Origin: an uncultured Mollicutes bacterium | GTDB taxonomy: Bacteria > Bacillota_I > Bacilli_A > ML615J-28 > CAG-313 | Assembly (NCBI GenBank): GCA_900538885.1 | Contig: UQAI01000002.1 | Span: 19,211 to 83,210 of the forward strand | Length of the DNA: 64,000 nt | Direction of reading: 5' to 3' | Shown: in pieces, positions 12,805-50,417 of the stretch | Layout of the letters: the number at the start of each line of letters is the position of its first letter | Position numbering within the stretch: position 1 is the first letter of the stretch | Notes under the pieces: model-generated | Seen by the model: only the letters and a program-made list of their open reading frames with translations | Told to the model about the DNA's origin: nothing | Database searches by the model: none | Program-made: the position numbers and the translations under genes

Positions 12805-14094
12805 ATGAATTTAATAAAGAGAGATCTATATCTTAAACAATTAATTAATAGAAAAGAAAATGGTTTAATTAAAATAATTACTGGTATAAGACGCTGTGGG
12901 AAAAGCTATTTGCTATTTAAAATTTTTTACAACTATTTAATTGAATTAGGAATAAAAGAAGATAATATTATTACACTTGCTTTGGATGATGATAAGAACC
13001 GTGAATATCGTAATCCTGATAAACTTTCTGATTATTTATATTCAAGAATTACAAATAAGAACGAAATGTTCTATATTTTTTTGGATGAGATTCAATTTGC
13101 ATTTAGTTTTAAAAATAATGATGATGGTTACTCTCGTGTATATGGAATTTTAAATGGCCTACTACGTTTGGATAATGTTGATATTTATGTTACAGGTTCT
13201 AATTCCAAATTCTTATCTTCTGATATTATGACCGAGTTTAGAGACCGTGGCGATGAAGTGCGAGTTTATCCGTTATCTTTTTCTGAATTTTATTCATCAA
13301 ATCTTTGGAATGATAAATATGAAGCCTGGAATGAGTATACTAGGTTTGGTGGATTACCTATGATATTAACTAAAAAAACCGATGATGAAAAGAGCAATTA
13401 TTTAAAGAATTTGTTGAATAAGACTTACATTCAAGATGTAATAGAAAGAAATAATTTGAAAGGAAATAACATAATTGATACGCTAGTTGATATACTTGCT
13501 TCATCAATTGGTTCATTGACAAACCCGACAAAACTTGCAAGAACTTTTGCATCAAATAATATTAAAACCACCGATGTAACGCTAGCAACTTATATAGATT
13601 ATTTAATTGATGCTTTTATGATTAACAAGGCTCAAAGATACGATATAAAAGGGAAAAAATATATTGATTCGCCTTTTAAATTTTATTTTACAGATATTGG
13701 AATTCGTAATTGTCGATTAAATTATCGCCAACAAGAGCCAACACATATAATGGAAAATATAATTTATAATGAACTATTAATTCGTGGTTATAATGTCGAT
13801 GTTGGTATAATAGAGCATACAACAAGAAATAAAGAAGGTAAACAAAAGAATATTCAACAAGAAGTTGATTTTATTTGTAATACTGCAGATAATCGTTATT
13901 ATATTCAATCAGCATTTTCAATACCTAATGAAGAAAAAATGATTCAAGAAACATCGCAGTTAGATAAAATTGGTGATTCATTTAAAAAAATAATTATAAC
14001 CCAAGATTTAGGTAAACCATGGCGTACTGATAAGGGCTATTTAGTTATTAATATTTTAGATTTCTTATTAAATCCATCTAGTTTAGATATATAA
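12805..14094 (+). CDS. AAA-family ATPase with a DUF4143 C-terminal domain (COG1373-like).
   Basis: Walker A GIRRCGKSYLL, Walker B IFLDEIQ. It has its own promoter (TTGACT-17-TATAAT, about 12742-12770) and a downstream terminator. Confidence 0.75.
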   Translation: MNLIKRDLYLKQLINRKENGLIKIITGIRRCGKSYLLFKIFYNYLIELGIKEDNIITLALDDDKNREYRNPDKLSDYLYSRITNKNEMFYIFLDEIQFAFSFKNNDDGYSRVYGILNGLLRLDNVDIYVTGSNSKFLSSDIMTEFRDRGDEVRVYPLSFSEFYSSNLWNDKYEAWNEYTRFGGLPMILTKKTDDEKSNYLKNLLNKTYIQDVIERNNLKGNNIIDTLVDILASSIGSLTNPTKLARTFASNNIKTTDVTLATYIDYLIDAFMINKAQRYDIKGKKYIDSPFKFYFTDIGIRNCRLNYRQQEPTHIMENIIYNELLIRGYNVDVGIIEHTTRNKEGKQKNIQQEVDFICNTADNRYYIQSAFSIPNEEKMIQETSQLDKIGDSFKKIIITQDLGKPWRTDKGYLVINILDFLLNPSSLDI

Positions 14095-14238: not shown

Positions 14239-16359
14239 ATGAAATTACTAATTGTGGAATCACCAGCAAAATGTAAAACAATTGCCAATTATTTAGGGGA
14301 TGAATATAAAGTAGATTCCAGTATTGGTCACATTCGTGATTTAAAAATTAAAGGTAAAGGTGGATTTGGAGTTGATATTGAAAATAATTTTCAACCTGAA
14401 TATTCAATTTTACAAGATAAAATGGAAGTAGTTAAACACTTAAAACAAGATGCGGATGCGGCAGAGCACGTATATCTTGCAACCGACCCCGACCGTGAAG
14501 GCGAGGCAATCAGCTGGCATTTAAGTGAAGTGTTAAACGAACCTAAAGAAAAAGTATCACGTATTGTTTTTAATGAAATTACTAAATCAGCTGTAACTAA
14601 GGCTATTAAAAATGACCGTCAAATTAATATGGATTTAGTACATTCTCAAGAATCAAGAAGAATCCTTGATAGAATTATCGGCTTTAGATTATCAGGCTTA
14701 TTACAACAAAAAATTGGCTCTAAATCAGCTGGTCGTGTACAATCAGTAGCCTTAAAATTGATTGTTGATCGTGAAAGAGAAATAGAAGCATTTGATAAAC
14801 AAGAATATTGGGACTTATATGCTAATTTAAAGAAAAATGTAAACAATAATGAATTTTTGTTAAAAGCTAAATTCATTGGAACTAAAGATGAAAAGATAGA
14901 TCTAAAAAATGAAGATGATGTTAATAAAGTTATTGAAAGAATAAACGATGGTGAATATGTTGTTGATGAGATAAATAAGAAAGTTCGTGCTCGTCCTTCT
15001 AAACCTCCATTCATTACTTCAACCCTTCAACAAGATGCAGGTGTTAAATATAATTATAATGCGAAAAGAGTAATGAGCATTGCCCAAAAACTTTATGAAG
15101 GTGTTGAACTAGGCAGTGAACGTGTTGGTTTAATTACCTACATGCGTACTGACTCAATTCGTTTATCTGATGAGTTTATAGATAGTGTTAAAACATATAT
15201 CACAGATAAATATGGTGAAAAGTATTATAAAGGAATGAAAAAGGCTGGACAAAAAGGCAAGAATATTCAAGATGCCCATGAAGCTATTCGTCCCACTAAT
15301 ATTAACAGAACTCCAGAAAGTGTAAAAAAATATTTACCTGCTGATGAGTTTAAGCTTTATTCATTAATTTATAATCGCGCTCTTGCATCATTAATGAGTG
15401 ATGCTAGTATTGAAAACACAACTGTTGATGTATTAAATCATGAATATTTATTTAATCTAACTGGTGAAAAAGTCTTATTCAACGGTTTTCTTGCGGTATA
15501 CGAAGAATCAAGCCTTGATGATGAAGAAAAAATAGAAGGCCTACCTGAGTTTACTAAAGGTGAAGTTCTTGAATTAATTGAACTACATAAAGAACAAAAG
15601 TTTACAGCTCCTCCATATCGTTATACTGAAGCTAGACTTATTAGAAAAATGGAAGAACTAGGAATTGGTCGTCCTTCAACTTATGCCTTAACAATGGAAA
15701 CACTAAGGGCTAGAGGCTATGTTAGTATGGAAAAAAGAACCTTTGTTCCAACACCTCAAGGTAGACTTACAGTGGAACAATTAGAAAAATTCTTTTCTGA
15801 AATTATTAACGTTAAATACACTGCGGAAATGGAAAATACCTTAGATGAAATTGCGGCAGGAAAAACTGTATGGTATGAAGAACTAAAGAAATTCTATGAT
15901 ATGTTTGCACCATTAATTGAGAATGCTCGTGATAATATGGTTAAAATATATCCAAAGATGACTGATGAGACTTGTCCAGTATGTGGACTTCCACTTCTTA
16001 TTCGTCGTGGCCCATATGGTGAGTTTACCGCATGTTCAGGTTACCCTCATTGCAAGTTTATCAAGAAAAAAGAAAAAGCGGAACCTGTATCAACTGGCGT
16101 TATTTGTCCAGTATGTGGTGAAGGTGAAATTGTTGAACGTATTAGTGCAAGAGGAAGATCAAAGGGTACAAAATTCTATGCTTGTAGTAGATATCCAAAA
16201 TGCAAAGCAACTTACTCAGGAATCCCTCAAAAAGAGAAATGCGAAGTGTGTGGAGCCCCAATGATTGACGATAATGGTACCATTAGATGTGGTAATGAGC
16301 ACTGCAAAACTAATGAAGCATTGCATAAAGTCCGTACAAGAAAACAAAAAATAGAATAA
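14239..16359 (+). CDS. topA: DNA topoisomerase I with three C-terminal zinc-ribbon motifs.
   Basis: TOPRIM N-terminus (LLIVESPAKCKTI, ATDPDREGEAISWH), active-site region GLITYMRTDS, and C-terminal CPVCG...C x3. Confidence 0.95.
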   Translation: MKLLIVESPAKCKTIANYLGDEYKVDSSIGHIRDLKIKGKGGFGVDIENNFQPEYSILQDKMEVVKHLKQDADAAEHVYLATDPDREGEAISWHLSEVLNEPKEKVSRIVFNEITKSAVTKAIKNDRQINMDLVHSQESRRILDRIIGFRLSGLLQQKIGSKSAGRVQSVALKLIVDREREIEAFDKQEYWDLYANLKKNVNNNEFLLKAKFIGTKDEKIDLKNEDDVNKVIERINDGEYVVDEINKKVRARPSKPPFITSTLQQDAGVKYNYNAKRVMSIAQKLYEGVELGSERVGLITYMRTDSIRLSDEFIDSVKTYITDKYGEKYYKGMKKAGQKGKNIQDAHEAIRPTNINRTPESVKKYLPADEFKLYSLIYNRALASLMSDASIENTTVDVLNHEYLFNLTGEKVLFNGFLAVYEESSLDDEEKIEGLPEFTKGEVLELIELHKEQKFTAPPYRYTEARLIRKMEELGIGRPSTYALTMETLRARGYVSMEKRTFVPTPQGRLTVEQLEKFFSEIINVKYTAEMENTLDEIAAGKTVWYEELKKFYDMFAPLIENARDNMVKIYPKMTDETCPVCGLPLLIRRGPYGEFTACSGYPHCKFIKKKEKAEPVSTGVICPVCGEGEIVERISARGRSKGTKFYACSRYPKCKATYSGIPQKEKCEVCGAPMIDDNGTIRCGNEHCKTNEALHKVRTRKQKIE

Positions 16360-16382
16360 AAAATAAAAAAATGTCGAAAAAG

Positions 16383-16412
16383 TGAGAGAAAATACTTGAT
16401 TTTTCTCTTTCT
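16383..16412 (+). terminator. Terminator after topA. It overlaps the -35 of the downstream sRNA promoter.
   Basis: Hairpin GAGAGAAAA-tacttga-TTTTCTCTT plus a T-rich tail. Confidence 0.5.
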
Positions 16413-16430
16413 TTGTGCTATAATGTTTAT

Positions 16431-16521
16431 GTAACGTTGTGTTACACATATCCCCTACAAGTTGTGGTTTATCCACAATCCCTTCCTATCAGGTGGTATC
16501 CCCCCACCTGATTTTGTTTTG
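16431..16521 (+). ncRNA. Candidate small RNA of about 90 nt with its own sigma-A promoter and an intrinsic terminator. Identity unknown.
   Basis: Consensus promoter TTGATT(16396)-17 nt-TATAAT(16419). Three stem-loops: GTAACgttgtGTTAC, TTGTGGtttatCCACAA, and CAGGTGGtatccccccACCTG plus a T-run. The loops are C-rich (CCCCT, TCCC, CCCCCC). Confidence 0.45.
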
Positions 16522-16655
16522 TTAATAATTTTATGATATCATTATACACGAAAGTTCTTTAATATAAATAGTATTAAAGGACTTTTTTCTTTTCCAAATT
16601 CTTGAAAAAATATGAATAATATAGTATAATACATTAGAAAGTAGAGGTGCCATAT

Positions 16656-17636
16656 ATGGGTCTATTTGATTTTCTTAAAAAGAAACCTAAAGATGATAAA
16701 TCTAAAAAGTATAATATAGGAATGAAAAAAACCAGAAAAGGCTTATTAGGTAAACTAAAAGCCGTACTATCAGGATATAATGAAGTTACAGAAGATTTAT
16801 TTGATGATCTAACTGATGCTTTTATCATGGCTGATATTGGTGTTGAAACTACACTTGATTTTATTGACGCATTAAAAGAAGATGAACGTGTAAAAAATGT
16901 AAAAAATGCAATGGAATTACAACCAATTATTGTTGATAAAATGTTTGAACTTTATTTAAAAAATGAACTTGTTAACAATAATTTAAATATTAATCCTAAT
17001 GGATTATCAGTCTTTTTATTTGTTGGTGTTAATGGTGTTGGTAAAACCACTACGATTGCGAAAATAGCATATCGACTAAAGAACCAAGGAAAGAAAGTTT
17101 TACTTGCGGCGGGAGATACATTTAGAGCTGGAGCTATTGATCAACTTCAAGTATGGGCTAGTCGTATTGGTGTTGATATTGTAACAAAGGTAAGTGGATC
17201 TGATCCATCAAGTGTAATTTATGATGCCATCATAAAAGCCAAAGCAGAAAAATATGATGTTTTATTATGTGATACAGCTGGAAGACTTCAAAATAAAGTA
17301 AACCTAATGAAAGAACTTGAGAAAATGAATAAAGTAATTTCTCGTGAAGTTGAAAATGGACCACAGGAAACACTACTTGTTATTGACGCAACAACTGGTC
17401 AAAATGGTTTATCTCAAGCTGAAGCCTTTATGGAAGTAACAAATATTACTGGTGTTATCCTTACTAAACTTGATGGTACAAGTAAAGGCGGAATTGTTCT
17501 TGCGATAAGAGATAAATATAATATTCCTATTAAAATGGTAGGTCTTGGTGAAAAAATGGAAGACCTTGAGTATTTTGACTTAGAAGATTATATTGGTGGA
17601 TTATTTATTGCGAGTGAAGATGATGAAGATGAATGA
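16656..17636 (+). CDS. ftsY: Signal recognition particle receptor FtsY.
   Basis: NG domain motifs GVNGVGKTTTIAKIA, DTFRAGAIDQL, CDTAGR, TKLDGTSKGG. Promoter TTGAAA-17-TATAAT at 16602-16630. Start ATG 16656 (the track used GTG 16647). Confidence 0.9.
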   Translation: MGLFDFLKKKPKDDKSKKYNIGMKKTRKGLLGKLKAVLSGYNEVTEDLFDDLTDAFIMADIGVETTLDFIDALKEDERVKNVKNAMELQPIIVDKMFELYLKNELVNNNLNINPNGLSVFLFVGVNGVGKTTTIAKIAYRLKNQGKKVLLAAGDTFRAGAIDQLQVWASRIGVDIVTKVSGSDPSSVIYDAIIKAKAEKYDVLLCDTAGRLQNKVNLMKELEKMNKVISREVENGPQETLLVIDATTGQNGLSQAEAFMEVTNITGVILTKLDGTSKGGIVLAIRDKYNIPIKMVGLGEKMEDLEYFDLEDYIGGLFIASEDDEDE

Positions 17637-17949
17637 TTTAGAAAAAAAAGATTATTATAATACCCTATATGGTTATTATAAAACATTACTAACTGACAAA
17701 CAACAAAGCATCTTTTCAAGTTACTATGAAGAAGACTATAGCCTTAGTGAAATAGCTGAAAACCTGGAGGTTAGTCGAAATGCAGTTTGGGATACTTTAA
17801 AAAAAGTAATTGATAAGTTAGAAGAATATGAAAAGAAATTAGAACTTTATGAATTTGATTTAAAGTTGGAAGAATACTTAAAAAAATTAGAAAAATGTAC
17901 TAATGAAGATGGTTTAAAAATCATTGAAGAAATTAGAGAAATGGAGTAG
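17629..17949 (+). CDS. ylxM: YlxM/p13-like putative DNA-binding protein of the ftsY-ffh operon.
   Basis: About 106 aa with helix-turn-helix (LSEIAENLEVSRNAVWDTLKK). Conserved position between ftsY and ffh. The start overlaps the ftsY stop (ATGA). Confidence 0.75.
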   Translation: MNDLEKKDYYNTLYGYYKTLLTDKQQSIFSSYYEEDYSLSEIAENLEVSRNAVWDTLKKVIDKLEEYEKKLELYEFDLKLEEYLKKLEKCTNEDGLKIIEEIREME

Positions 17950-17952
17950 TGT

Positions 17953-19359
17953 ATGCCATTTGAGAGTTTATCCGATCGAATTCAAATGTCGCTTAGACGT
18001 TTAACGGGTCGTGGCAAAATTAATGAAAAAGATATAGATGAGGCAATGCGGGAGATTAGAGTCTCTCTACTTGAAGCCGATGTTAACTATAAAATAGTAA
18101 AACAATTTATCGCGGATATAAAAGAAAAAGCCTTAGGTGAAAGAGTTATGAAGTCTCTTACCCCTGGCGATCAAGTTGTTAAAATAGTTTATGAAGAACT
18201 AGTAAAATTAATGGGCGAAGAAGCCGTTCCAATTAATTTGAAAAAATCAGGTACAAGTGTCATACTTATGGCTGGTTTACAAGGTAGTGGTAAAACCACT
18301 CATGCTGGTAAACTCGCATTATATTTACGCAAGAATAACAATTTAAAACCATTACTTGTTGCTGCTGACGTTTATCGTCCTGCCGCAATCAATCAATTGG
18401 TTCAACTTGGTAAACAACTTGACATAGAAGTATTCCAAATGGGAATTTTAACTAAACCTCAAGTAATAGTTAAAAAAGCGTTAGAATACGCAAGATTAAA
18501 CAATTTTAATTTAGTAATCATTGATACCGCTGGACGTTTACAAATTGATGAAGCTTTAATGCAAGAATTAGTTGATATTAAAGAAATTGCTCATCCTGAT
18601 GAAATCTTACTAACAATTGATGCGATGACTGGTCAAGATGCTGTTAATGTTGCATCAACTTTCCATGATAAATTAGATGTTACAGGATGCCTACTAACTA
18701 AACTTGATAGTGACACTCGTGGTGGTGCTGCTCTGTCAATTAGATATATGACTAATATCCCAATTAAATTTGTAGGTATGGGTGAAAAACTAGATCAACT
18801 TGAAGTATTCCATCCAGACCGTATGGCTAAACGTATTCTTGGTATGGGTGATGTATTATCATTCATTGAAAAAGCAACGGCAAATATTGATGAAGATGAT
18901 GCCATGAAACTTGCTGAAAGAATTCAAAAAGGCTTATTTAATTATAATGATTTCTTAGATCAAATTAAAACAATTAAAAAAATGGGTTCATTAAAAGGTT
19001 TACTTGGTTTAATTCCAGGAATTGGTTCAAAAATAAGAAACCTTAATATTGATGATAAACAATTTGTTTTCATTGAAGCTATCATTGGTTCAATGACTAA
19101 AGAAGAAAGAAAAAACCCAGATTTAATTAATAAGAGTCATTCACGTAAATCGAGAATTGCCAATGGTTCAGGTAGAACATATCAAGAAATCAACAACTTG
19201 ACTAAACGTTTTGAAGATATGAAAAAACAAATGGAAAGCATGTCAAAAATGGATGAAGACCAAATGGAAAAAATGTCAAAAGGTCAAGCACCAATGCCAA
19301 TGCCTAAGATGAAGGCTAAAAAAGGTAAAGGAAAGAATAAAGGAGGCTTCCGTATTTAG
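17953..19359 (+). CDS. ffh: Signal recognition particle protein Ffh.
   Basis: GLQGSGKTT, DTAGR, TKLDSDTRGGAALS, and a Met-rich C-terminal M domain. Confidence 0.95.
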   Translation: MPFESLSDRIQMSLRRLTGRGKINEKDIDEAMREIRVSLLEADVNYKIVKQFIADIKEKALGERVMKSLTPGDQVVKIVYEELVKLMGEEAVPINLKKSGTSVILMAGLQGSGKTTHAGKLALYLRKNNNLKPLLVAADVYRPAAINQLVQLGKQLDIEVFQMGILTKPQVIVKKALEYARLNNFNLVIIDTAGRLQIDEALMQELVDIKEIAHPDEILLTIDAMTGQDAVNVASTFHDKLDVTGCLLTKLDSDTRGGAALSIRYMTNIPIKFVGMGEKLDQLEVFHPDRMAKRILGMGDVLSFIEKATANIDEDDAMKLAERIQKGLFNYNDFLDQIKTIKKMGSLKGLLGLIPGIGSKIRNLNIDDKQFVFIEAIIGSMTKEERKNPDLINKSHSRKSRIANGSGRTYQEINNLTKRFEDMKKQMESMSKMDEDQMEKMSKGQAPMPMPKMKAKKGKGKNKGGFRI

Positions 19360-19572
19360 GAAGTCTTTTTTACAGCGAAATTTAATTGACTGTTAGTCAG
19401 TTAAATTATATAATGATAGTATGAAATACAATAACAGTTATACTAATAATTATACATATATGACTAATTCACTTAGAGATTTAAAATTGATAGATCCAAA
19501 CATTAATTTTGTGGAAGGATTATTAAATAAAAGTGTAAAAGCTCATATAGAATATTTAGTGGGAAAAACAAA

Positions 19573-20104
<532 letters not shown>

Positions 20105-20213
20105 ATAAAAAAACTATATAGTAAATTAGAAACAGATCTAATTTATCATATAGTTTTTCTTGTTGTAAATAAGTTTAAAAAAATACCAATTTAGTGTATA
20201 ATGTAATAGATGA

Positions 20214-45181: not shown

Positions 45182-45888
45182 TTTTTGGTAAAAATACAGT
45201 TAAAGAAGCAATTACAAAAAAAAGAAGTATTAAAACAATATATCTTAATCATGAAAAAGTTTTAAATGAACTCCCTAAAAATGAAGTGGTAAAAAATGCT
45301 AAAATAATTTTTATGCCACTTAAAGAAATGGATAAAATGGTAAAAGGAAACCATCAAGGTGTTATCGTGGAAATAAATGATGAATATCATTATCAATCAT
45401 TAAATAAAGTTATTGAAAAAAATAAAGATAAAGAAAATGTAAGTTTAATTATGTTAGATGGCTTAGAAGACCCCCATAATTTAGGGGCGATTCTTAGAAC
45501 TGCTGATGCGACGGGAATGGAAGGAATTATTATTCCTAAAAATCGCAGTGTAAGTTTAAATGCGACTGTAGCGAAAGTTTCAACAGGAGCCATTGAATAT
45601 ATTGATGTTGTCCAAGTAACAAACTTGGTTCAAACTATCAAAGAATTAAAAGAAAATGGATACTGGATAATTGGCCTTGAAATGGAAGGCTCTGTTGATT
45701 ATAAAGAACAAGATTACTTAGGAAAAAAAGTAATAATTATTGGGTCTGAAGGAAGGGGAATCTCCAGACTAGTAAAAGAAGAATGTGACTTTATGATTAA
45801 TATCCCTATGATTGGTCATGTAACATCGCTAAATGCATCAGTGAGTGCTAGTATTATTTTTTATGAAATATTAAGACAAAGGGGATAA
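45175..45888 (+). CDS. rlmB: 23S rRNA 2'-O-methyltransferase of the SpoU/TrmH family (RlmB/YacO).
   Basis: SPOUT motifs DGLEDPHNLGAILRTADA and IGSEGRGIS..IPM.G.V.SLNASV. Confidence 0.85.
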   Translation: MLIFGKNTVKEAITKKRSIKTIYLNHEKVLNELPKNEVVKNAKIIFMPLKEMDKMVKGNHQGVIVEINDEYHYQSLNKVIEKNKDKENVSLIMLDGLEDPHNLGAILRTADATGMEGIIIPKNRSVSLNATVAKVSTGAIEYIDVVQVTNLVQTIKELKENGYWIIGLEMEGSVDYKEQDYLGKKVIIIGSEGRGISRLVKEECDFMINIPMIGHVTSLNASVSASIIFYEILRQRG

Positions 45889-45896
45889 AAAAATAG

Positions 45897-46445
45897 ATGG
45901 TAGGGGAGAAAAAGGATAAACTATTTAATTACAATGATTATGAACTTTTATATATGGCAAGTGATGATAGCGTAGAAGCGATAGATATTTTACTTAAGAA
46001 ATATCGATATTTAGTACTTCGCATAATAAAAGATTTCAAAATTGAACAAAATAAAAAAGAAGATTTTCTTCAAGAAGGTCTTTTAATGGTTAATAAAGCA
46101 ATTAAAACATATAAAATAAATAGTAAGATGACATTTACTAAATATGTTGAAATGCTTGTTAATCATCGTTTCATTGATATGTTACGCAAAAAACAAAATG
46201 AAAAGATAATGCCGCTAGAAGATTTTGAGTACGTTTATGTGGCTGCGGAAACACCAAAGATACTTGCGGAAAGTTCAATATATGATTATACTGGCCTTTC
46301 GAAATTAGAACAGAAAATTTATAATTTGAGATTTCTAGAAGGCAAAACATATAAAGAAATTAGTGAGCTATTGGGGATGAATATAAAACAAATATATTCT
46401 GCAGTTGATAGAATTAAAAAGAAAAGGCACAAGATTGCAATATAA
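45897..46445 (+). CDS. sigH: Short sigma-70 family factor, SigH-like by position and sequence (182 aa).
   Basis: Region 2 (LVLRIIKDF...FLQEGLLMVNKAIKTYK...FTKYVEMLVNHRFIDMLRK) and region 4 HTH (KTYKEISELLGMNIKQIYSAVDRIKKK). It sits between rlmB and rpmG-secE-nusG, as sigH does in Bacilli. Confidence 0.55.
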   Translation: MVGEKKDKLFNYNDYELLYMASDDSVEAIDILLKKYRYLVLRIIKDFKIEQNKKEDFLQEGLLMVNKAIKTYKINSKMTFTKYVEMLVNHRFIDMLRKKQNEKIMPLEDFEYVYVAAETPKILAESSIYDYTGLSKLEQKIYNLRFLEGKTYKEISELLGMNIKQIYSAVDRIKKKRHKIAI

Positions 46446-50303: not shown

Positions 50304-50417
50304 TTTTAAAAAAGTCGTATTAGTATAGTATATAGTATAAAAGTCTCTGCCGTAGACAGTAGGTGCTACGTTGTAGCTTAATTTCCTACCGAGGAAAAAT
50401 TTCAGGAGGTGAAAACA
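50304..50417 (+). promoter_or_regulatory. rplJ leader region: internal promoter plus a structured element, putatively the L10(L12)4 autoregulatory leader.
   Basis: TAGTATAGTATATAGTATAAAA AT-rich -10-like region, then GTCTCTGCCGTAGACAGTAGGTGCTACGTTGTAGC stem-loops ahead of RBS AGGAGGTG. Confidence 0.4.

Follow-up and report, generated by a model that had tools for sequence, protein, structure and literature searches.

A structured, C-rich small RNA gene predicted downstream of topA in uncultured gut Bacilli

The DNA analyzed here (the window) is a stretch of 64,000 nucleotides (nt) from contig UQAI01000002.1 of an uncultured Mollicutes bacterium, with a G+C content of 30.8%. Within it, the spacer between topA and ftsY contains an element (16396-16521, plus strand) that is very probably a genuine, structured and independently transcribed small RNA (sRNA) gene. 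The reading that we favor, held with good but lesser confidence, is that the element encodes an independent, Rho-independently terminated sRNA of ~90 nt, the founding example of an undescribed family of C-rich RNAs directed against Shine-Dalgarno (SD) sequences, and that the mRNA of a SigH-like sigma factor is its best candidate target. The family occurs downstream of topA, usually just 5′ of ftsY, in uncultured Bacilli of the gut that have a low GC content and are relatives of Acholeplasma and Izemoplasma. Conservation and covariation in these relatives place the element far beyond chance.

Architecture and conservation of the topA-linked RNA

A preliminary description of this DNA had proposed a sigma-A promoter overlapping the topA terminator, three stem-loops, unpaired C-rich regions and an intrinsic terminator. 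All of these features were found at the positions proposed, as follows.

16396..16424, plus strand: sRNA promoter, with the -35 hexamer TTGATT at 16396-16401 and the -10 hexamer TATAAT at 16419-16424 (promoter scan)
16430..16446, plus strand: hairpin 1, UGUAAC-GUUGU-GUUACA (fold)
16447..16460, plus strand: C-rich single strand 1, CAUAUCCCCUACAA, unpaired in every individual fold; proposed main seed
16461..16479, plus strand: hairpin 2, GUUGUGG-UUUAU-CCACAAU (fold)
16480..16487, plus strand: C-rich single strand 2, CCCUUCCU; proposed second seed
16488..16521, plus strand: intrinsic terminator with a 9-bp stem, AUCAGGUGG/CCACCUGAU, at 16488-16512 (terminator scan)

The promoter agrees with the consensus at 10 of 12 positions, and its 17-nt spacer ends in TGTGC, so that a TG at 16416-16417 provides an extended -10 element. 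It is therefore near-ideal, and the earlier wording of a “perfect” promoter was too strong. A start within ~2 nt of 16430, a position derived from that of the -10 hexamer only, would give the predicted transcript of ~90 nt. Folding of the 94-nt stretch 16428-16521 yielded the three hairpins with a minimum free energy of -26.3 kcal/mol, compared with -13.4 ± 2.5 kcal/mol for dinucleotide shuffles (z = -5.2), none of 200 shuffles folding as well. The unpaired C-rich regions are the two single strands listed above and the 7-nt terminator loop UAUCCCC (16497-16503). The terminator stem, which is followed by UUUGUUUUG as a U-tract at 16513-16521, was the sole terminator-like site reported by the terminator scan in 16000-17000. 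The transcript has no coding potential, its only AUG being directly followed by UAA.

Related loci were collected in a scan for FtsY, with one genome per species, that returned 80 loci (numbered L001 onward, with further loci added below); the 27 closest were examined by BLASTN and by inspection. These derive from uncultured gut metagenome-assembled genomes (MAGs) labeled Bacilli bacterium, Erysipelotrichaceae, “Staphylococcus sp. CAG:324”, Anaeroplasma or Acholeplasmatales. The element was present 5′ of ftsY in 17 of the 27, representing 17 species-level genomes, and in 50 more distant loci the region 5′ of ftsY held no C-rich motif of this type. As a separate observation, the MAG labels in this clade are inconsistent: L005, L008, L010 and L015 are titled “Prevotella sp.”, “Anaeroplasma bactoclasticum”, “Staphylococcus sp. 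CAG:324” and “Staphylococcaceae”, and given that their FtsY proteins are 82-84% identical to that of the window, the taxonomy of these records is unreliable.

All 17 close members fold singly into the same three-hairpin layout despite differing helix sequences, the loop of hairpin 2 varying in both sequence and length. The most conserved stretch is CAUAUYCCCU (CATATYCCCT in the DNA), which follows hairpin 1 and is invariant in 17 of 17. Strand 2 takes the form CC(C)UUCYU after the second hairpin in most members, CCCUUCCU being near-invariant, and the terminator loop is likewise C-rich in most; L022 and L023 have no C-rich strand 2 and keep the C-rich terminator loop instead.

Plain MAFFT alignments (A1 and A4) misaligned hairpins of unequal length, and an N-padded, hand-made structural alignment (A2) was unusable because MAFFT re-gapped hairpin 2 and the terminator. 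A covariance model, R1, was built from eight members using alignment A3 with a stated structure, and pair counts were taken from A5, an alignment fitted to R1. The model recovered all 17 close members at 41-102 bits and revealed no second copy of the sRNA in the window. It also gave three weak matches (23-26 bits, E = 0.02-0.08) exactly 5′ of ftsY, in two Izemoplasmatales MAGs (L028 and L030) and one Acholeplasmataceae MAG (L040). These loci have clear promoters, CUUAUCCCUUACA or ACUUAUCCCCUAUA after hairpin 1, CACAUCCCCUUCCUUA or AUCCCCUUAAUUA as strand 2, and terminators; L028 and L030 carry one additional hairpin. A pattern scan of metagenomes with CATATYCCCTAMAN{15,32}CCTTCYT returned 80 loci, four of which (L090, L124, L131 and L146) were true members when checked with the model, the remainder being chance matches. 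Members defined with R1 amount to 23 related loci, 20 confident and 3 weak. By tblastn, the RNA is preceded by topA in 23 of 23, at a distance of 44-200 nt in 22 and of 831 nt in L017.

The structure-anchored alignment contains many compensatory pair types in all three helices. In A5, 91.0% of cells are in standard pairs, as against 59.4 ± 1.8% in shuffles, although the former percentage is inflated because A5 was fitted to the model structure. Changes on both sides were seen in 21 of 22 pairs: 5 of 6 in hairpin 1 (where 95.6% of cells pair), 7 of 7 in hairpin 2 and 9 of 9 in the terminator stem (95.5% of cells paired). The covariation score was 0.750, compared with 0.206 in shuffles (none of 500 reaching 0.750) and at most 0.13 in slid registers. 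Given the independent single-sequence folds and the size of the effect, the structure is secure despite the bias in A5.

The promoter is conserved together with the structure. In all 21 members inspected, TTGnnn is separated by a 17-nt spacer, most often with a terminal TG, from a TATAAT-like -10 hexamer 5-7 nt before hairpin 1, and each confident copy inspected has its own terminator as well as its own TTGnnn-17-(TG)TATAAT promoter. Conservation of the intergenic region had been named as a check on the preliminary description, and it bears the proposal out: promoter, three helices and terminator are kept, with compensatory changes, in at least 20 species-level genomes. The genes and signals that surround the element are as follows.

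14239..16359, plus strand: topA (DNA topoisomerase I, 706 amino acids), the upstream neighbor (list of open reading frames (ORFs))
16369..16380, plus strand: conserved box AAATGTCGAAAA, upstream of the sRNA promoter
16379..16414, plus strand: AT-rich terminator hairpin of topA, core GAGAGAAAA/UUUUCUCUU; the -35 hexamer of the sRNA falls within its loop and 3′ arm (fold)
16550..16586, plus strand: second AT-rich hairpin, of 16 bp, with a U-run, 3′ of the sRNA terminator and 5′ of the ftsY promoter
16602..16630, plus strand: ftsY promoter TTGAAA-17-TATAAT (11 of 12 consensus positions), -35 at 16602-16607 and -10 at 16625-16630 (promoter scan)
16656..17636, plus strand: ftsY (signal recognition particle (SRP) receptor), ATG at 16656, the downstream neighbor (translation)
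17593-17949, plus strand: ylxM-like gene (Pfam UPF0122), following ftsY
17953-19359, plus strand: ffh, following the ylxM-like gene; SRP54 domains in relatives

The overlap of the sRNA promoter with the topA terminator, noted previously, was confirmed in that the AT-rich hairpin at 16379-16414 covers the -35 hexamer. This hairpin is weak (16357-16416 folds at -12.5 kcal/mol, z = -3.8), and equivalent hairpins overlap the sRNA -35 hexamer in L012 and L009. The overlap would suit the view that there is no gene here, and that the region is simply the terminator or 3′ untranslated region of topA with a chance promoter-like match, as would the abundance of promoter-like hexamers in AT-rich genomes (8 found in a 1-kb scan, compared with 5.4 expected). 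This view is nonetheless strongly disfavored and is regarded as the least credible of those considered: the promoter geometry is kept in 21 members while the surroundings diverge, the three helices covary, and in L017 the promoter is retained though an extra gene parts topA from the RNA. Furthermore, L208, whose FtsY is 98% identical to that of the window, shows no base difference from the window between the start of hairpin 1 and the end of the terminator stem, whereas divergence is seen in the promoter spacer and in the spacer downstream.

It is also very unlikely that the element is a cis-acting leader or attenuator of ftsY-ylxM-ffh, in which the C-rich strands would sense a factor and the terminator would be read through conditionally. 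Such a role would account for the fact that the element, despite order-level divergence, lies directly 5′ of ftsY in almost every member, its terminator ending only 20-135 nt before the ftsY promoter. That promoter, however, stands strongly conserved between the terminator and the start codon, and no alternative, anti-terminator pairing is conserved. The tract TTGAAAAAA...ATATAGTATAAT 5′ of ftsY is almost invariant in L001-L024, sRNA-less loci included; in L005, L008, L010, L011, L020, L027 and L029, topA and ftsY remain adjacent, the RNA is absent and the spacer holds a terminator only. RNA and ftsY can also be found apart. In L131 the RNA follows topA and is succeeded by convergent genes in place of ftsY, and in L003 a gene for 290 amino acids lies between the RNA and ftsY, which retains its own promoter. 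The element is therefore not the leader of ftsY, as the preliminary description had held, since ftsY has its own promoter at 16602-16630. Taken together, the conserved promoter, the covariation, the separability from ftsY and the identity with L208 indicate an independent gene under purifying selection that is neither an ftsY leader nor a by-product of the topA terminator.

Comparison with known RNA families

A permissive Rfam scan of 16300-16700 (E ≤ 10) gave no RsaE, SRP, 6S or other credible match, and SRP RNA and 6S RNA were without a match at E ≤ 10 in five permissive scans of the window and relatives. The Rfam comparison with RsaE/RoxS, SRP_bact and 6S proposed in the preliminary description thus returned no family at threshold and nothing at all for SRP and 6S. 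Identities as an SRP RNA, 6S RNA, riboswitch or leader were rejected, as they had no Rfam support. Across the window, gathering thresholds were reached by two elements only, an FMN riboswitch (508-621, 102 bits) and an L10 leader (50332-50414, 50.6 bits).

The RsaE model (RF01820) had no match at E ≤ 10 in the window or L009. Its best scores were 25.1 bits in L018 (E = 0.015) and 17.4 bits in L030 (E = 0.87), and the gathering score of 79 was reached nowhere. The LhrC model (RF00616, clan CL00114) gave nothing in the window and at best 27.4 bits in L018 (E = 0.013; gathering score 110, also not reached), rli22 scored 14.9 bits in L040, and the model of an unrelated, C-rich anti-hemB sRNA of Burkholderia scored 17.9 bits on the same sequences. 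Given that LhrC and the Burkholderia sRNA score as well or better, the likeness to RsaE is at the level of class and is common to unrelated C-rich sRNAs.

Even so, a highly diverged RsaE/RoxS orthologue has to be considered, one with the same regulatory role in redox or central metabolism, which would extend that family to Acholeplasma- and Izemoplasma-like Bacilli. The matches in L018 and L030, though below threshold, are full-length, and in L030 “stem + CACAUCCCCUUCCUU” aligns with “stem + UCCCAUCCCCUUUGUU” of RsaE. Both lineages are Bacilli, and both RNAs are trans-encoded sRNAs of ~90-115 nt with a sigma-A-type promoter of their own, a 5′ hairpin, unpaired CCCC motifs followed by U and a strong terminator. 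RsaE/RoxS has a ResD/SrrA site and a conserved 8-nt box near -65 (PMC4409812), and the topA-linked family also has a conserved box 5′ of the -35 hexamer. Against orthology stand the low scores and the equal or better scores of unrelated models given above, together with differences in synteny and sequence. Whereas rsaE is “always located downstream of pepF” and confined to Staphylococcaceae, Macrococcus and Bacillaceae (PMC2790875, PMC4409812, PMC6158497), the RNA studied here is always preceded by topA, is followed by ftsY or other genes, and has an uncultured Acholeplasma-like host. The 10-nt C-rich motif CCCCUUUGUU, duplicated in RsaE/RoxS (PMC4409812), is duplicated in no member, the motifs here being CCCCUACAAG and CCCUUCCUAU. 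The architecture differs as well, in that the first C-rich region of RsaE lies inside the 5′ hairpin whereas both main regions here lie between helices. Orthology is therefore considered unlikely. The earlier label “RsaE/RoxS-type” is apt as a description of class, on account of the exposed C-rich motifs, but does not hold as family membership.

The resemblance at class level extends to other RNAs. In LhrC, UCCC motifs are found in the loops of a hairpin and of the terminator as well as in a single-stranded stretch, and they pair with ribosome-binding sites, and LhrC1-5 of Listeria are present in several tandem or dispersed copies per genome. The topA-linked RNA shares with this Listeria group (LhrC1-5, rli22 and rli33) a C-rich motif in the terminator loop; it differs in its seed context (CAUAUCCCCUACA), synteny and host clade. 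Within the loci searched it occurs as a single copy, one in the window and one per locus, with no tandem array of copies. Other Firmicute C-rich sRNAs (IsrR/FsrA and RsaA, C, D, G and H) are described as stem-loops split by single-stranded C-rich regions thought to mask SD sequences (PMC2790875, PMC9410917). The topA-linked RNA follows the same general design, although the scans of the window and relatives showed no sequence or covariance model similarity to any of these RNAs, and, in contrast to IsrR/FsrA, it shows no sign of iron or Fur control.

The folds and terminator scan reveal the layout of the RsaE-type class (several conserved unpaired C-rich motifs, a 5′ hairpin and a 3′ terminator), and the gene has what is expected of a C-rich anti-SD RNA: a conserved promoter and a terminator of its own, from which transcription is predicted, no ORF, and separability from its neighbors. 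Thus, the element most likely represents a new family within the known class of trans-acting, C-rich anti-SD sRNAs and not a member of RsaE/RoxS. No concept is overturned by a new family of a familiar kind. Almost nothing is known of riboregulation in uncultured gut Bacilli with reduced genomes (Acholeplasma-, Izemoplasma- and RFN20-like), which are common in human and animal guts, and the family would extend the logic of C-rich seeds and G-rich ribosome-binding sites from Staphylococcus, Bacillus and Listeria to a lineage without a genetic system. Inclusion of the family in RNA databases could also improve the annotation of MAGs.

A SigH-like mRNA as candidate target

The three hairpins hold the near-invariant C-rich stretches CAUAUCCCCUACA and CCCUUCCU, and usually a C-rich terminator loop, in single-stranded form. 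In the mechanism that we propose, these seeds would pair, antisense, with the G-rich SD sequences and early codons of mRNAs made elsewhere in the genome; pairing would block ribosome binding and possibly trigger decay. The precedent is RsaE/RoxS, and LhrC and IsrR block ribosome binding in the same way. The unpaired UCCC or C-rich motifs of RsaE/RoxS bind SD sequences and block initiation (PMC2790875, PMC4409812, PMC6158497), and a single mRNA can be contacted at two G-rich sites by its two seed copies (PMC6158497), as is predicted below for the SigH-like mRNA. Action through C-rich seeds at ribosome-binding sites is, on balance, the more plausible mode for the topA-linked RNA, albeit by a modest degree; we infer both pairing in trans and the identity of the target.

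Targets were predicted within the 64 kb of the window (53 crude gene calls) and a few further loci. The seeds pair more favorably with initiation regions than with random windows, 11 of 53 (seed 1) and 10 of 53 (seed 2) falling below the 5th percentile of the background where ~2.7 would be expected for each. One region ranked first of the 53 for both seeds, as follows.

45857..45936, plus strand: SigH-like initiation region, candidate target, with the SD sequence AAAGGGGAUA and codons 2-4 GUAGGGGAG

The gene concerned (45897-46445) encodes a 182-amino acid protein of the sigma-70 family with Pfam regions 2 and 4. It lies in the order cysS, mini-RNase III-like gene, rlmB-like gene, sigma gene, rpmG, secE and nusG, the place that sigH occupies in B. 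subtilis. Its SD sequence AAAGGGGAUA is complementary to UAUCCCCU, and its codons 2-4, GUAGGGGAG, are complementary to UCCCCUAC. When the full-length RNA was cofolded with each initiation region, the SigH-like region gave a ddG of -18.5 kcal/mol, compared with a mean of -7.0 ± 3.5 kcal/mol over 52 initiation regions, and the cofold set seed 2 against the SD sequence and seed 1 against codons 2-4. The mRNA would accordingly be clamped at two sites.

Homologues of the SigH-like factor with 90, 71, 53 and 46% identity (L200-L207) all keep an AGGGG(A/G)UA SD sequence and, though the codons differ, one or more additional complementary G-rich motifs within the first codons: AUAAGGGAUAAAGGGGAUA in L200, AUAGGGGAA...AGGAAGGG in L204 and AUGGGAAGGG in L206, AGGAAGGG of L204 being the exact complement of CCCUUCCU. 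In L200 the SigH-like site ranks first of 21 genes, and the assembly of L200 carries an sRNA whose three helices and two C-rich strands match those of the window, so that presence of the RNA is linked to the sigma-gene motif in one extra genome only (L200/L208; L201 and L208 are from one sample). It may be noted separately that the SigH-like factor diverges very fast, being 71% identical where FtsY is 98% identical (L200/L208) and 53% where FtsY is 95% (L004/L204, both CAZDPJ01), which suggests rapid evolution, replacement or MAG chimerism.

Several considerations temper the favored reading of a trans-acting anti-SD RNA directed at this mRNA. Transcription of the sRNA is a prediction from sequence. 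The absence of the RNA from several close relatives in which topA and ftsY are adjacent (L005, L008, L010, L011 and L020) indicates that it is dispensable or has been relocated, and action in trans alone would leave its tight linkage to topA and ftsY across orders unexplained. Nor is the enrichment among initiation regions specific, because any C-rich sequence shows apparent affinity for G-rich ribosome-binding sites, and the prediction covers the limited gene set given above. Finally, the final codons of the upstream rlmB-like gene contain the SD sequence of the SigH-like gene, such that part of the conservation of this SD sequence may reflect protein coding.

The otherwise unexplained linkage to ftsY and ffh, along with three repeated, exposed C-rich motifs on a stable scaffold, could point instead to an RNA that mainly binds protein, as a decoy or sponge for an RNA-binding protein with a preference for C-rich strands or as a partner of the SRP machinery. 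We regard this as quite improbable. No SRP RNA, 6S RNA or protein-binding RNA family matched at E ≤ 10, the hairpin loops are variable, unlike domain IV of SRP RNA, and the motifs are complementary to local ribosome-binding sites, with two sites on the one conserved candidate mRNA.

Pairing at ribosome-binding sites thus remains the preferred mode of action, within which the SigH-like mRNA, the best of the predicted candidates, is put forward as the physiological target only tentatively. A slightly bolder and correspondingly more doubtful proposal is that the sRNA is a dedicated post-transcriptional brake on a SigH-type (competence- or sporulation-type) sigma factor, working by a two-seed clamp with co-evolving sites. 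The target sites would then have been kept by turnover of G-rich motifs though the sigma factor itself diverges to 46-71% identity between close relatives. If this is true, the sRNA would gate a developmental or DNA-uptake program in a widespread uncultured gut lineage, and the order-level linkage to topA and ftsY could mean that its expression is coupled to supercoiling or to the demand for membrane biogenesis.

Other candidate sites were set aside. The topA initiation region (GGAAGGAU in the window) was dismissed as a pairing partner, the site being confined to the window and L001-L003. In the ftsY initiation region, no run of G residues complements the seeds. A good score for the GlgB initiation region (24007) was obtained solely with the terminator-loop probe and was discounted because that probe included inaccessible stem bases.

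Minor features of the locus

The AAATGTCGAAAA box lies 20-40 nt 5′ of the sRNA -35 hexamer in most members and within the spacer in L013, L018 and L023. As the mark of a regulon it was rejected, the window containing 8 matches with at most one mismatch compared with 9.2 expected; it could be a regulator site, an UP-like element or a piece of the topA terminator. The second AT-rich hairpin (16522-16600 folds at -15.1 kcal/mol, z = -3.8) was found only in the window, L001 and L002. A different, GC-richer hairpin occupies this place in L208, and none is present in L006 or L012. The hairpin at 16550-16586 is thus lineage-specific and possibly a back-up terminator or the remnant of an insertion.

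Across L001-L024, the ftsY promoter TTGAAAAAA...ATATAGTATAATA (16602-16632 in the window) is near-invariant though the surrounding spacer has diverged. This conservation exceeds the needs of a promoter by itself, so the tract may include an operator.

In the window, a gene for an ATPase of the AAA_14/DUF4143 type (12805-14094) lies directly 5′ of topA. The 290-amino acid gene inserted in L003 (2929-3801) resembles, by eye only, the C-terminal part of such a protein, a resemblance that would suggest a mobile or duplicating gene. An aldo/keto reductase at 19421-20105 is broken into three ORFs of 51, 132 and 45 amino acids, the 132-amino acid piece corresponding to Pfam positions 15-127 of 291, and is probably a frameshifted pseudogene.

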